IMG/VR virus record: IMGVR_UViG_2529293141_000023
Length of the DNA stretch: 19,068 nt
Source of the DNA: a virus
Taxonomy: Duplodnaviria > Heunggongvirae > Uroviricota > Caudoviricetes
Reading direction: 5' to 3' (one strand)
Made by a program: the position numbers. Positions 631 through 6,600 of this stretch are shown here, in pieces. How positions within the stretch are numbered: the first letter of the stretch is position 1; each line of letters begins with the position of its first letter.

Positions 631-3600
631 TAACTCGGTGGCCAGTTTTTGTTGACCACTTCATCGGCGGCATTCAGGAGGATGAAAGACATTGTTTCGT
701 CATAGTCCATCGGCACACCGCGAGCCTCGAACATCCCCTGGTAGGCCAGAACAACGGAGACCTGAAGGTTTGCATGAGTGGTGCGGTTCTTTTCGGTGTA
801 CATGTTCACGGCGGCTTTCAACTCTAAAGCCTGCGAGGCGTCCATGACCTCCAGCTTATCGATCAGGCGTTCATTCTGTCGCATGATTCCATAGGCTGGC
901 TGTTCGGTACGGTTCAGGGCTTCGGTGATAGCCTCGACCTCTGCGGTCTTGTTCAGCTTCTTAAAACGGCTCCGTAACTCAATCAGGGATTTACGGGAAG
1001 TCAGACGCTGATCGACACGCCAGATAAGGGTGTCAACGTCGCTGTAATCGATTTTACTCATAGGGCTTGCAATCTCCGGGCAGAACATTTATCATTAAAT
1101 TGGGGAAATTGTACTCAATTACAACCCCGCATCACGTTGATTATTTTATCATGATTTCAATAGATTGACAATGGATTATTTGCGGCTGGGTTGATTTATC
1201 AAATCATGCGTATAACGAGCTGTAAGCGGTTCTGAGGGCCACCCTGTGGTGGTAGGGTCACCTGAGAGGAGATAACGCCATACAGCGCGTTAGGTATTGC
1301 CCTGTGGCGTCCGTGGGTATCACTCCGCGCCGGGCACCCCACCCCGCTGCCAGGTGTCACGGTTTCCCAAAGGCAGAAACAGAAACCGTGTTGCGGTTCT
1401 GGTTCTGCATTGCCCAAAGGAGGCTAACCCGTTGGGCGTAGCCTGTCCCAAGATCAGGAACGGATGTTCCTTACCTAAAGAGTCTTGCTTAATTAACAAT
1501 CAATTAATACTCACAATCTCTTTAAGGTCTTGCCCTGGTCCTGAGGGTTCTAGTTTTATCTGGTGTGGGTAGGTTTATCTATAGTCTTATTGTGTCTGAT
1601 TTCTTTACACCACGGTGTCGGGATTCTTTACACCAGATGTCACCTGCTGTCTGATTTCTTTACACCTCTGAAGATTCCCCGGTTTGTCGTGGCGTCTGAT
1701 TTCTTTACACCGGGAGATGAGCCAACAGGCTCGACTCCACATGTGGGAAACAGGCCCCGGCCTAAAACCTGGACCCGGACGGGTGAGCGTAGCGAAAGGT
1801 TTTAAGAGGCTAGAATTTAAGAGAGAAATAATTAAGAGCCTGAGCGATTAATTATTGAACGATTAAATTATAAGATTAATAAGACCGTAGCCCGGACGGG
1901 CGAGCGGAGCGAGGTCTTATATATCTATTATTGTCTAGTGTGTCCCAAAAGACACATAGCCCCCCCTGAGTCAGACCACCCACAAACCCACCGTAATCAC
2001 CCCCCACAAATTCATCTGATACACATCACGACGTAGAAGTCAACATATACCTGATCATTTTGTTGCAATTTTGCATAAATTATTGTAAAATATAGACATA
2101 GCGTGATGTAGTGAGCATGTCTACTCGGGATCTGGAAACCCGCCGTTTTGCAACTCATCGCGTCACGCTGTGTACAGAGTCGCAACGTGTGCTTAGCCGA
2201 GCAATCAAGATCTGTACGAGTGAGCCGGGCGGCTTCTCCTCCGCTCTGGTTCCTCACCCTGTGAGCCTTGAACAACTCCACTTGCCAGGGTTCACAGTGT
2301 GATGTTCCTCTCAAGATATCACGCGAGATCTCCTTATCTCAAAAGCCTCCCCGAAAGGGCACAATCCAACGGCGTGGTAACCGTGTGGATGATTAACCGT
2401 TTACGGTTTCCGGCGTGTTTCAGTTCACGCCGTTTTCCTCTGGTGTCTTGTCGATGAGTCGCCACAGGAAAACTCAAGCGATAAATCTCCTCTTATTAAG
2501 TCCACCCGGTAACCTTCCCGGGTTCTTTTTTTTGTGGGTATTTGCCAAAAGGTTGGCGCTATTGGCGTGACGCCGCCAGGGGCGGCAAGTATCCACACAA
2601 AAAGGGTTTACCCTTTCCCTCCACAGAGGTGTGGGATCGGGGCTGGTGATGGGGTCCATGATGGACCTCTGATCCTATTCGCTGCCTCTCTCCTGTATCT
2701 CTAATATCCGATCTGGAGTCTCCCCAACTCCCGGATTCTCCGGTGCAACGCCGGGTATCACTGCGCCCCTGTGCGCTTCTCCACTCCTCAAGGAAAATTC
2801 AATGAATGCTACTCCTCGTTACCCTGTGACCCAGGGCGACATCATCGTGAGCTATGCTAGCTCACTTTTTGACCGCACCGAAGTAACCGCCCCGGATGGT
2901 CTCCCCGATCACGTCGATTGTGGCGACATCCTGGACAGCAAAACTTTTGCCCTGTATGACTCATCCGCCGCTGACGCTGGCAAGCCGATCATTAACCTGT
3001 CCAACATGGACGCCGACGGCAAGCCCAAAACGCTGGTCATTGTGGATCGCCACGTAGTGATCACGGATTTCAATCTGAAAGCCAAAGATGAGGCATCCAA
3101 GAAAGCCGCATTAGAAGCGCTGACCGCATCGGGTGAGATTCGCCTGGCTGTTAATTCTGATTTCCGTAAATCTCAAGGAGAGTAATCACATGGCTGTGGA
3201 TTTCAAAAGTTTTGAACGTCTCGACACGGTAGCGGCTATCAAGTCCGTTCCCGCTGGTAATCACCTGATCTCTGATCTGGGTATCTTCACTGGTGTTAAC
3301 TCCACTACCCCACGCGCTCAGGTTGTGGATATTGTGGAAAGCGCTGTTGCAGAGCTTGAGCAGGTCTCCCGCTACGGCACCGAAGTAAACAGCATCAAGA
3401 TGGATAAAACCATCCTCCGTGATCAGGAGATCCCACACTACGCAACAGAATCCGATGTGAAAACCGAAGATTGGCAATCCTTGGTAAGCCCGGCTAACCC
3501 GGATCAGGCTCAGGCGGTTGCGTCCGTCATTGCCGCTAAATCCGTGCGTATGCGTGATCACCACCTGGAGACTGTGGAAGCGACTTTAGCCCGCGCCCTG

Positions 3601-6600
3601 TTCCAACAGAAAGCGAAAGCGGCAAAGACCAATGACGGCGACGTCGATTTCAACGTGGTGTTTGATACCGCCCCGCTAGATTTTGAGCTTGACGCCTCAG
3701 CCGGGGCTAATGTGTATGCCCAGCTTTCGAAGATTCGCCGCCAACTGGTGAAAGAGTACGGCGCATCCCGTGCCTATCTGGAGCGATTCTTCTGTTTCGC
3801 ATCCCCGGATCTGTATGACGCTTTAGCGGGTCACCCTGAAGTAACCAGCCTGATCACTAACAAGGTGGCAGAGGCGGCACGTGGTGCGCTGATCCCGGTT
3901 AACACTGCGGGCTATGACAGCTTCAGCATTGGCAACATTACTTTCATTCTGGCGGACGATGACCGCTACGAGATTGAAGAGGGTTCCGGCCTGTTCGTTC
4001 CTAAGTTCTCCAGTGCTGATCGTAACCCGTTCAAACTGGTGCGCGGCCCGGCTTCCCGTAATCAGGATATTGCCGCTAAAGGCGTGATCAGCCCGTACTA
4101 CCAGAAAGTGATGGTTGACCGTTACAACATGGTAACCATCCATCAGGAATCAAGTCATATTCCTCTGGTACTGCGTCCGTCCTACCTGCTCAACGTTAAG
4201 TTGAAGTAAGGCAGCAAGTAACAGACTTTAAGCCCTGGCATTGCTGGGGCTTTTTACCATTTGAGGTGAGTAGTGAAGATTAGCCTTAACATTCCAGCCT
4301 TGGGAGAGGTGTACACCTCAACCAATGCCGACGTGATCAACCGTTCAGCCCTGGCGCGTAAGTTGGGGATCGATCAGGTGTCTCTATGCCGCTATGAAAA
4401 ACAGTACGGCTTTGAGCGAGCGTTAAAAATTATGTTGGAGAAAAAGAAACTCCGGCAGATTATTGGGAAGTAATAAAAATTCAACGGGCTAGCCTTTATG
4501 GGCTAGCCTTTTTTATTGGTTGGGGCCTGTGGCGTAAAGGTTATATAAAGGGGAAAACAATTCCTTTCATGGAGAGGCAAAAGAACAAAAATCATTATTG
4601 TCTTTGTTGATGATAGCCTTTCGAACATTCGATCATATAATTAAACATTTCTGACAACATTCTATCTTTAGATACCTCTACTTTTTGTATTTTCTGATGA
4701 CTTCCAGATGTAAGCTGTGAGTTCAATCTTGTAGTGCGGGCATCATAGTAATTTTCACCAGGATAAAATACATAGTGAAAGATAAAACCTTCAGCTATAA
4801 AATACCATCCAATCCCATTGATACTTTCAATCTCACCAAAAGCAAAGTTCGTGAGGACCGATTTGATGACATGATCAGGAATATTGCCAGTGCTATCAAC
4901 AATCCGTAGCACTCTAATCTTGATAAAATTATCAATTTTAACCTGACTCTTATTATTAAACCTAACAATGTTATTTTTAATGCAGTGCCTCATCATCTCT
5001 CCAAAATCAGGATTCCCTACCACCGAAGAATAATGCAGGTCCATAGCATTAGAGGCTCTCCATAGTATGGATAATAGAAATAGATAAAAGCGCTTGTAAT
5101 CGAAGTTGCTAATAATAATGTGATCAGAGTTCTTTCTAATGTTGTGAGGGTTTCTTAGCAATCTGATCCCATAAGACTCGTATTGACCACTAAGAAATTG
5201 TTCGCATTCAAAACATAGCATTGGTTCTTTAGGATCTAAATTTTCTCTTCTTGGTTCCCTTCCTTTTTGCATAGAGATAACTTGACCGCCGTTTCCTTTT
5301 GCTTTGTTAAAGAAACTTCTAGGGATACTGTGTGATTCCTGAAGTTCTTTTGCTTCAAGACATAACTTACAAACACCATCCATAAAACCTCCTATATCTC
5401 ATAATTGAAATTCAAGATTTTGACTAATATTTCTCTTCATTCATTAAACTTCTGAGATGGCGTAACTCATTTGTACAGCTTCGTGCCTCTCTTACTTCGT
5501 TTTCTAACATAACTATTGAGGGTTCTGCCGATTCATCCTCAAAAATTTTTTCTGTTAGACTAACAACCCTAAATAATGTCCATCCAGAAATAATAGCAAG
5601 ATCTAGGAGTGGCTCTTCGATATAGGCATCGCCTGTTCTTTTATTCCTAAGTTCACCATGCCATCTTGGATTTCTCATGAATGAAGGCTTATCACCCAGC
5701 GGTAATAAATATCCATGAACCAAACTATTCCTATAATCAGCCAAATCAATAGCAGCGAGAGAAGCAAGATTTAAGACTGTATTACATTCATTGCTAAGTT
5801 TATCATTACCATTTCCCAAATACTCGAACCATTTATCAGATGGCAATTTTTCGGTAAAGGGCCTAACTCCTTTTACATCAATCTCTCTCAGAGTCCATAA
5901 GGCACGCTCCAAAGTTGTTTCAAACTGACCATAACAAACAACAAAAGCCCCGATCTTCATTAATCTTTCTGGGGTTAAGTGTAATGCAATGAATCGACTG
6001 ATAACTTTAAATGATTCTTCCTCGTAATTTTTAACCATAGTGCCGTCCTTTGATCCATACAGGTGCTTAACATCACATGAAATTTTTTATGATTTTACAA
6101 CTAACTAGGTCACAGACAATAGCATCCATAAAGCCCCGTTAGTGGTAAGGAGACAAGTGAAGCCGTTAGGCGACTGCATCAGATTGTCAGAGGGATCACA
6201 CCTTATCAGGGTGCTCGTGTACCGTTAGGAGCGTGAGCGAAGCGCTGGCAGAGCCGGATCTGTAGCTACCGGGGCATTACCACTATTCACCTGTTTACGT
6301 GGCTTATAGGGCCACACATCGGGCTTAAATGCGTGTGATCAATCTGTTTGGGAGTTGTGCCAGGTATGCGGCTTTTTGTTCGTTGTTGTGCTGTCGCGGT
6401 AAGAACGTGGAACCACCGCCAGCGTGATGATATGCTCCCTTGTACCACAGACCAATCACGCGACAGGTGCGGGCGTAGAACAATGGGTAGTTTAAGTTGT
6501 ACCTGCTTTAGCGGGGCAACGTAACTAACTGATAAATCGTAACTTCTTGATTTATCAGGAGACTGGAGCGGGCGAAGGGAACAGAACAACAAGCCATGCC

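Follow-up and report, generated by a model that had tools for sequence, protein, structure and literature searches.

A capsid-encoding island of Enterobacterales as a probable satellite of Certrevirus-type lytic phages

To which kind of element do the two head genes of the virus record IMGVR_UViG_2529293141_000023 belong, given that no other gene of a phage head is visible next to them? This stretch of 19,068 nt (hereafter, the window) had been given a preliminary description in which an open reading frame (ORF) of 127 codons and a following one of 339 codons were compared with lambda D and E and ascribed to a satellite with an integrase, alpA and primase-helicase backbone. In the present analysis, the pair was assigned to a separate integrative element, referred to as the capsid island, which is probably a phage satellite of Certrevirus-type lytic myoviruses, predicted from sequence comparisons to build its own capsid shell and to use the portal and terminase of its helper. 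Moreover, the capsid island most likely represents a previously undescribed satellite family. The window itself is a mosaic of three pieces, namely an insertion sequence (IS, 1-663), the right half of the capsid island (664-6587) and an island resembling P4 and the phage-inducible chromosomal islands (PICIs) (6564-19068). The capsid island is truncated by the IS, an IS3-family element that lies outside it. The two head genes are the following, lengths being given in amino acids (aa):

2802-3185, + strand: 127-aa probable head-decoration protein (gpD/HDPD-like), from sub-threshold Pfam HDPD matches, gene position and the ratio of non-synonymous to synonymous substitution rates (dN/dS)
3190-4209, + strand: 339-aa major capsid protein with HK97 fold, Phage_cap_E family, from Pfam, PHROG, AlphaFold, Foldseek and dN/dS

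The pair was found as it had been placed, on the + strand, with a 4-nt spacer (TCAC) between the ORFs, a ribosome-binding site for each of them (AAGGAA, 7 nt upstream, for the 127-aa ORF and AAGGAG for the 339-aa ORF, both starting with ATG) and a downstream hairpin at ~4229-4254, and the likeness to lambda D and E in size and order was also correct. An in-frame GTG exists upstream of the capsid gene at 3133, yet the ATG start was present in all 23 aligned homologues. The 339-aa protein matched Pfam Phage_cap_E (PF03864) with an E-value of 3.4e-18 (66.2 bits vs. a curated cutoff of 22.9), its residues 15-335 being aligned to positions 7-326 of the 329 in the profile, and it also matched PHROG 29, 'major head protein' (E=1.2e-17). 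Furthermore, the AlphaFold model obtained with 24 homologues (pLDDT 79.3, pTM 0.82) adopted the HK97 fold, so that the fold previously proposed for this protein was confirmed both by the model and by its Foldseek matches. The best of these in the PDB was the coat protein of ICP1 in the small capsids of PLE, the satellite of that phage (8g1r, E=1e-16), followed by the phiTE capsid protein (9cul, E=3e-15), by those of Bas63 and Sf14, and then by those of Chi, YSD1 and lambda (E about 1e-9; 3e-9 for lambda gpE). The probability was 1.00 for 8g1r, 9cul, 9ncf, 9c2d and 8k39, with TM-scores of 0.5-0.65 and a sequence identity to the structural matches of 11-19%. This ranking argues for a genuine capsid protein whose structural kin are large lytic myoviruses and not lambda, and the model places the protein within the structural clade of phiTE, ICP1 and FelixO1-like phages. 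At the sequence level, the profile of the capsid family reached an E-value of 8e-6 against 9zbi_A among the PDB sequences and a non-significant one of 0.39 against 9cul_G, and none of the sequenced phages had a capsid protein more than 24% identical to the 339-aa protein. The dN/dS of the capsid gene was 0.07-0.29, with a synonymous divergence up to saturation, which indicates purifying selection, and the full-length homologues formed 42 clusters at 90% identity. On these profile matches and the predicted structure, the product of ORF 3190-4209 is considered a functional major capsid protein that has the HK97 fold and belongs to the lambda-E family.

As for the 127-aa protein, Pfam HDPD (PF02924) was matched over nearly its full length with an E-value of 1.1e-4, below the curated cutoff. 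Matches to HDPD were found in six of the nine family members and in remote relatives, the best scores ranging from 22.7 to 24.8 bits vs. a cutoff of 29.1 (E=1e-4 to 2.5e-5, the value of 2.5e-5 being that of the remote member P0169). A direct alignment of the family with the CR3 decoration protein by hhalign gave a probability of 2.6%, and no significant match to a decoration fold appeared in the profile searches of PDB sequences or among 1.84 billion representatives, where 10 relatives were the only sequences recovered. Nevertheless, the gene is followed immediately by a capsid gene of the E family, which is the arrangement of the decoration genes in lambda, CR3 (gp005/gp006) and phiTE (212/213). 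Its dN/dS of 0.05-0.48, with synonymous divergence up to saturation, indicates purifying selection, and its full-length homologues formed 135 clusters at 90% identity. ORF 2802-3185 is thus a probable gene for a gpD-like cementing (decoration) protein, and the pair proposed in the preliminary description stands for the capsid member and, as a probable assignment, for the decoration member.

Complete relatives of the capsid island were examined in E. coli SCU-316 (L002), Pantoea cypripedii (L007, with two copies in tandem), Pluralibacter gergoviae and Pectobacterium odoriferum (L006, strain NCPPB 3839), together with one IMG/VR contig and several assembly contigs. Intact islands were about 13.3-15 kb long, came from Enterobacterales and had their genes arranged alike, whether in E. 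coli, Pantoea, Pluralibacter, Pectobacterium or the metagenome contigs. In the left part, an integrase is accompanied by a leftward set of genes coding for a tape-measure protein of ~705 aa (Pfam TMP_3, E=8e-25), a 113-aa protein that the precomputed annotation puts in the Phage_phiTE_211 family, a DNA-binding protein of ~190 aa, a helix-turn-helix (HTH) protein of ~200 aa resembling the replication initiator O (PHROG) and three small ORFs. The middle is occupied by a non-coding region of 1.7-2.0 kb, after which the decoration-like gene, the capsid gene, an HTH-like ORF of 61-66 aa and a variable slot follow rightward. Genes for portal, protease, terminase, tube and sheath were absent from every copy of the island, including L001, L002, L003, L007 and L009. 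The earlier view of a satellite-like element with no visible portal, protease or terminase was therefore upheld in the window and in the complete relatives, and the suggestion that more of a morphogenesis module might lie to the left of the IS was not, since intact relatives have at that side four small ORFs, the Rep-like HTH protein, the tape-measure protein and the integrase. Moreover, the capsid islands had an integrase and neither AlpA nor a primase of the DUF927 or D5 type.

A dozen or more independent assembly contigs with island genes were 13.0-14.5 kb long, and one of 13,333 bp (L003) covered exactly the island of SCU-316, which together suggest that the element has a fixed size. All carriers of the family belong to Enterobacterales, namely to Citrobacter, Enterobacter, Cronobacter, Pectobacterium, Pantoea, Pluralibacter, Serratia, Klebsiella aerogenes, Salmonella and E. 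coli. Such carriers are rare, with 13 out of 5426 complete E. coli genomes; in the species-representative genomes, the alignment-based scan returned one locus, in Pectobacterium odoriferum, and the single-sequence scan none. Mosaic recombination was apparent, as the identity of the capsid protein to that of L003 ranged from 61 to 88% and the surrounding genes varied independently.

Four independent signals in these sequences probably point to a phage of the genus Certrevirus (Vequintavirinae), which includes the lytic myoviruses CR3, CR8, CR9, phiTE and CB7 of ~142-155 kb, as the helper: the termini of the tape-measure protein, a scaffold-like motif, a DNA element and an antisense segment. The tape-measure protein of the islands showed 39% identity to those of Certrevirus and was colinear with CR3 gp020, with its first ~42 and its last residues (...NML-QGGPN) nearly identical to those of the phage protein. 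The ends of the gene had 89-91% nucleotide identity to the phage, in comparison with 36% identity for the central part of the protein, which is ~105 aa shorter than CR3 gp020 owing to a difference in the N-terminal coiled-coil region. This gene lies outside the window, and the helper-like form of it is found in most islands. In addition, the 113-aa protein contains a motif of 31 aa with 81% identity to a segment (residues 9-39) of CR3 gp004/phiTE_211, an acidic protein of 369 aa encoded directly upstream of the decoration and capsid genes of the phage and of helical, scaffold-like appearance in its sequence. The host genera of the Certrevirus phages overlap those carrying the islands. Circular permutation and headful packaging are features of the Certrevirus genomes, phiTE being a generalized transducer (PMC7344957), and the phiTE capsid has T=13 with a trimeric beta-tulip decoration protein (PMC11972413).

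The other two signals were found in the non-coding region, which in the window contains the following features:

1593-1711: four 19-nt iterons (TGTCTGATTTCTTTACACC), a repeat family with 84-100% identity
1857-1944: AT-rich stretch and hairpin (AAGACC...GGTCTT around CCGGACGGGCGAGCGGAGCGAGG), homologous to a Certrevirus intergenic site
2063-2091, + strand: sigma-70-type promoter (TTGCAA-17-TAAAAT) for a rightward leader, from a promoter scan
2176-2200, + strand: leader segment antisense to the start of the Certrevirus decoration gene and candidate seed, from blastn-short
2411-2535, + strand: two hairpins with T-runs resembling intrinsic terminators (2411-2432 and 2504-2523), from a terminator scan

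The iterons occupy one and the same position in the island lineages, with a sequence specific to each lineage, and are accompanied by the HTH protein resembling initiator O; by this arrangement, those at 1593-1711 are taken as the replication origin of the capsid island. The element of ~85 nt at 1857-1944, of which a weaker second copy is present at 1763-1795, had 82-89% identity to an unannotated intergenic site of the phages, with E-values down to 5e-22. It was matched by 25 phage records, 24 of them known Certrevirus phages and the remaining one a fragment of a related phage, with no other match among 50,697 phage records. In CR3, the core is present as a single copy at 138296 (site 138262-138362), and since it is AT-rich, carries repeated AAGATC boxes and lies between divergent gene blocks, the site looks like an origin. 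Compensatory changes maintain the stem of the hairpin in CR3, L002 and L004. One record sharing the origin-like element, 'Enterobacter phage SS-2025' (PV358085.1, 14.4 kb), was considered as a possible satellite particle and rejected, as it had no island genes and was an unannotated Certrevirus-like genome fragment. Separately, 'ENT3' (PV358084.1, 49 kb) is probably another such fragment, as judged from tblastn matches only.

Downstream of this element, the region 2063-2535 is a structured leader with no conserved ORF and with positions conserved across islands. Its promoter was conserved in position in seven out of eight islands, and a hairpin with a T-run, situated about 270 nt before the decoration start codon, in all eight. 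Read as its reverse complement, the antisense segment corresponds to the start codon and the initial codons of CR3 gp005/phiTE_212, a target that is identical in both phages. In L003, the match covers 24 of 25 nt (E=4e-4 against the complete phage genome), and in the window 18 of 19 nt, its significance being given by the BLAST E-value and by its location. The predicted duplex with the phage decoration start had an energy of -41 kcal/mol in the window and -56 in L003, most islands falling within this range, with L008 at -32. According to RNAalifold on six islands, the segment occupies the large apical loop of a conserved hairpin. By analogy with SviR of PLE, the leader RNA may be an antisense regulator deployed by the satellite. 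Two other interpretations of the region were rejected. One was a known large RNA: no Rfam family was matched at the gathering threshold or at E<=1 by the non-coding stretch of 1.7-2 kb, which resolves into origin, promoter, leader and terminators. Similarly, a lambda-type cos site was dismissed, as GGGCGGCAAGTA at ~2582 shares just the first 7 bases with lambda cos, and Certrevirus phages package by headful.

How the capsid island relates to the known satellites was then considered. Like the capsid-forming PICIs (cf-PICIs, e.g. EcCIEDL933), it is a small integrative element with its own HK97-fold capsid protein and a slot for accessory or defence genes, and some cf-PICIs also have tape-measure genes. 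However, the integrase-alpA-primase backbone of cf-PICIs bears a full set of genes for the head and for packaging (portal, protease, TerS, TerL and connectors), and neither that set nor that backbone was found in the capsid island, which instead has an E-family capsid protein with a D-like partner, an O-like Rep with iterons and, as predicted helper, a lytic myovirus of ~145 kb. The likeness to PLE of Vibrio cholerae, whose helper is ICP1, lies in the helper (a large lytic T=13 myovirus, predicted in the present case), in the ICP1 coat (8g1r) being the best structural match of the island capsid protein, in a shorter tape-measure protein of its own, and in its own replication initiator and origin. 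Moreover, RNA may be used against the structural-gene transcripts of the helper, as PLE does with SviR. In contrast, PLE forms T=4 heads from the helper coat and the external scaffold TcaP, while the capsid island brings coat and decoration proteins. A satellite tape-measure protein predicted to suit the helper tail was found in most islands, being weaker and divergent in the lineage of the window. No homology to PLE genes turned up in the island proteins, although no search was aimed at them. PLE, whose core genes include a RepA_N initiator and TcaP, belongs to a Vibrio and ICP1 setting, and the hosts of the capsid islands are Enterobacterales, with an O-like Rep according to PHROG. In PLEs, an own tape-measure protein, tail chaperone and hub are encoded and the chimeric tails are about 10 nm shorter, PLE11 Rta blocks the tape-measure protein of the helper, and the small RNA SviR binds ICP1 structural-gene transcripts (PMC12987554).

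More distant parallels exist among other elements, with the capsid island sharing with P4-like satellites and Gram-negative PICIs an integrative lifestyle, a size of about 10-15 kb, tRNA sites and defence hotspots; the neighbouring island in the window is of this general kind, P4-like or classical PICI. The P4 genes psu, sid, delta and alpha were not found among the island proteins in the Pfam and PHROG searches. CpmB of SaPI1 shares the coat-binding end of the helper scaffold, to which the helper-scaffold motif of 31 aa in the 113-aa island protein is analogous. In SaPIbov5, Ccm is a satellite homologue of an HK97-type capsid protein that makes small capsids (PMC5052747). However, in both SaPIbov5 and SaPI1 the shell is still made of helper coat, the hosts, helpers and backbones are unrelated to those of the capsid island, and there is no sequence relationship. 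Regarding the phage modules, lambda gpD/gpE and the decoration and capsid proteins of phiTE resemble the island pair in order (decoration, then capsid), sizes and Phage_cap_E/HK97 fold, the phiTE decoration protein being a trimeric beta-tulip like gpD, but the island genes are detached from portal, scaffold and terminase in an element of 13-15 kb. The jumbo-phage satellites I55 and JPTI55 were discarded as an unrelated kind of element. In the literature, in a search that was not exhaustive, no satellite of Vequintavirinae or Certrevirus was described, nor any with capsid and tape-measure genes but no terminase.

Taking these likenesses together, a more specific proposal is put forward tentatively, as a possibility that further work may well revise, namely that the islands constitute a new Enterobacterales satellite family with a hybrid of the cf-PICI and PLE strategies. 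This proposal includes the island's own capsid, cement and tape-measure proteins (plus a scaffold mimic in most lineages) acting with the portal and headful terminase of the helper, a copied origin-like part of the helper, an antisense leader that also gates expression, small heads of T=3 or T=4, and chimeric tails of reduced length. In the main interpretation, that of a satellite of Certrevirus-type phages with its own shell, the island would on infection replicate from the iteron origin by means of its O-like Rep, and the helper-like element beside the iterons would probably recruit replication functions of the helper. A small shell would be built from the island's capsid and decoration proteins, with portal, terminase, neck, tube, sheath and baseplate taken from the helper. 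In most lineages, the shorter tape-measure protein with helper-like ends would replace that of the helper, and the 113-aa protein could act as a small scaffold or adaptor through its helper-scaffold motif. Headful packaging by the helper has little sequence specificity, so that the satellite would need no terminase; the requirements of a satellite of such a phage would be DNA in concatemers and a head in which the helper genome does not fit. The leader RNA may repress the cement protein of the helper and may also gate the satellite capsid genes through termination and read-through. The PLE genome has 18 kb vs. 126 kb in ICP1, their capsids being T=4 and T=13, respectively. Scaled from this ratio, a genome of 13-15 kb is estimated to fit a head of T=3, or one of T=4 that is not completely filled.

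The single-satellite model of the preliminary description, in which one integrase-alpA-primase satellite had acquired capsid subunits, has in its favour that all the genes are adjacent within one window of 19 kb and that both parts are satellite-like. The boundaries of the parts, however, coincide with the following features:

1-663, + strand: right part of an IS3-family insertion sequence, with orfB at 1-633 (Pfam rve/rve_3/rve_2, E=6e-32)
6564-6587: attachment (att) repeat from the 3' end of tRNA-Gly at the junction of the capsid island and its neighbour (the match to L001 ends at 6587 and that of the neighbour starts at 6564)
6588-19068, - strand: separate P4-/PICI-like island with integrase, AlpA, DUF927 primase, single-stranded DNA-binding protein, PerC and antiterminator Q (Pfam)

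In E. coli EEC_W5 and LR-29-1, positions 664-6587 have a counterpart with 99.8% identity, which forms part of an island with its own tyrosine integrase and with 24-nt direct repeats of the tRNA-Gly 3' end at its borders. The identity to the intact island L001 begins at 664 and stops at 6587, and the identical 24-mer borders the L001 island at 8686 and 23866, within tRNA-Gly. For their part, positions 6564-19068 matched E. coli genomes devoid of the capsid pair with 99.9% identity and 96% query coverage, and the capsid island was found in other genomes with its own integrase and no P4-/PICI-like neighbour, whose integrase is P4-type. The only sequence common to the two islands is the 24-nt att repeat, and as both matches include it, the capsid pair and the integrase, alpA and primase genes belong to two independent islands in tandem. 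Each island also has its own repeats, namely the iterons at 1593-1711 in the capsid island and tandem repeats at 12428-12661 in the neighbour, where such repeats close to the DUF927 primase gene are probably the origin of that island; these distinct sets near the genes of each island argue for separate replication modules. Hence, from the backbone previously listed, the iterons do belong with the capsid pair, and integrase, alpA and primase-helicase belong to the neighbour, which refutes the single-satellite model.

Among the remaining explanations, an island devoted only to interference, in which the capsid, decoration and tape-measure homologues would be decoys or poisons of Certrevirus assembly, as an abortive or assembly-blocking defence, and the island itself would not be packaged, is regarded as unlikely, although several observations would suit it. 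In L002 and L003, an Old-like nuclease occupies the slot for accessory or defence genes. A purely interfering role would be served equally well by tape-measure ends resembling those of the helper, by the motif of the scaffold-like protein and by the antisense segment, and Rta, encoded by a PLE, blocks ICP1 tail assembly independently of satellite transfer. However, poisoning by co-assembly is improbable at ~20% identity to the helper capsid protein, and the uniform size of 13-15 kb, the own integrase, the own Rep and iteron origin, and the spread across many genera with mosaic recombination suit a packaged element; moreover, interference does not exclude packaging, as satellites usually do both. 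A decaying remnant of a lambda-like or other prophage, with only D/E-like head genes and a tail gene left, would account for the missing portal, protease, terminase, tube and sheath genes as well as for the IS cut in the window. It is nonetheless very unlikely, in view of the recurrence of this compact gene set, with its order and size, in six genera or more, the purifying selection on both genes (dN/dS about 0.1-0.3, dS up to saturation), the absence of a sequenced phage capsid protein more than 24% identical, and the integrase, Rep and iterons that the island owns. Finally, a host-made compartment of encapsulin type with the HK97 fold, or a particle resembling a gene-transfer agent, might be suspected because encapsulins also appeared in the Foldseek list. 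Their E-values were around 1e-8 to 1e-6, however, and phage capsid proteins scored far better (1e-16 to 1e-13). By sequence the protein falls into Phage_cap_E, no gene for a cargo or for its loading was present, and the island around the capsid gene, bounded by an integrase, also has a tape-measure gene as well as DNA and protein motifs of phage origin, all of which makes this option highly improbable.

Several points weigh against a satellite of Certrevirus-type phages with its own shell, which is still the preferred interpretation. Dependence on the helper was deduced solely from sequence similarity, and mobilisation of the island is likewise a prediction. The island capsid protein is only ~20% identical to that of CR3, and its fit on the helper portal is also predicted. 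The decoration assignment relies on profile matches below threshold; the AlphaFold model of the 127-aa protein, made with 19 close homologues, was unusable (pLDDT 38), so that the fold expected for it was not confirmed, and the phiTE decoration protein ranked third in the search of PDB sequences with the family profile at a non-significant E-value of 0.55. Regarding the non-coding region, the element shared with the phages may be an origin, a packaging site or a regulatory site, and the antisense match is short and was not detected in the divergent islands L004 and L007. Furthermore, the copy in the window, being cut by the IS, may be inactive. The lineage to which it belongs (L001 and L010, at 14382-16602) has neither the 113-aa gene with the scaffold motif nor the 190-aa gene, and its tape-measure-like protein of 700 aa is much more divergent, with only the N-terminal ~100 residues resembling the Vequintavirinae tape-measure proteins and a central part resembling proteins of Klebsiella phages of ~140 kb. 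This pattern suggests a swapping of modules to fit different helpers, and the helper of the window's lineage may differ in detail.

Apart from the head genes and the non-coding region, the portion of the capsid island contained in the window has the following features:

664-1062, - strand: first gene of the leftward operon, cut by the IS (141-147 aa in relatives; the L001 coding sequence 17920-18363 corresponds to window 619-1062)
~4229-4254, + strand: hairpin and T-run after the capsid gene, read from the sequence, its loop being too long for the terminator scanner used
4273-4473, + strand: 66-aa ORF (61-66 aa in relatives) with a helix-turn-helix-like motif, placed after the capsid gene in relatives
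4486-4509: strong bidirectional intrinsic terminator closing the capsid operon, with a 10-bp stem and T-runs on both strands
4595-6038, - strand: variable accessory slot, defined by position, with genes for proteins of 262 aa (4595-5383) and 204 aa (5424-6038)

The first leftward gene, in which the IS cut falls 46 nt short of the 3' end, was kept in all islands with 42-97% identity and had no Pfam or PHROG family. The HTH-like ORF was kept in the five aligned islands with 46-56% identity, and at 4273-4473 it matched no family in the Pfam, PHROG and PADLOC-type profile searches. Concerning the slot, it is occupied in other islands by the Old-like nuclease of L002 and L003 (PADLOC Old, E=5e-45) or by other genes, as in L007. 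In the window, the 262-aa protein has a Cys-rich start and matched PHROG 7075 and 19960, neither of which has an assigned function. Neither slot protein had a PADLOC match, and the two genes may form an uncharacterised defence pair.

Some additional observations were made on the ends and copies of the related islands. In Pantoea cypripedii (CP024768), a second and more divergent copy at 13384-18093 of L007 is in tandem with the first at a single site, and it encodes a 339-aa protein with a weak Phage_cap_E match, a 114-aa decoration-like protein and a protein of the phiTE_211 family, with no tape-measure gene called. At the left end of many islands, a 188-aa ORF comprising only the catalytic domain of a tyrosine recombinase was found with 97-99% identity between genera, and L002 and L003 have, besides it, a 452-aa integrase at the right end. 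The 188-aa ORF with the recombinase domain was located as follows:

L002: 12503-13069
L003: 1361-1927
L006: 1628-2194
L008: 2061-2627

In the neighbouring P4-/PICI-like island, the tandem repeats at 12428-12661 and 9321-9620 had units of 9 nt (3.7 copies) and of 21 nt (3.5 copies), besides several of 12 nt. Moreover, a 415-aa ORF at 15756-17003 on the - strand had a weak Rha-like match at its N-terminus and an odd remainder rich in Ser, Cys and Arg; a gene fusion, a frameshift or an overlap of the ORF with non-coding sequence may account for it.

Known satellites either remodel the capsid of the helper, as P4, PICIs and PLE do, or carry a whole head-and-packaging module, as cf-PICIs do. If the reading of the capsid island as a satellite with its own shell is true, the island would stand between these two kinds as a new intermediate, equipped with just the shell, the cement and the tail ruler, and would show the minimum set of virion parts that the satellite of a headful-packaging helper has to encode. 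Such an element would also provide a satellite system for the phages of Vequintavirinae and Certrevirus, in which the antisense control of a helper structural gene and the helper-derived origin element are directly testable. Furthermore, Certrevirus phages are under development for biocontrol of Pectobacterium, Cronobacter and Enterobacter and are generalized transducers, so these islands could limit the efficacy of such phages and move defence genes between genera.

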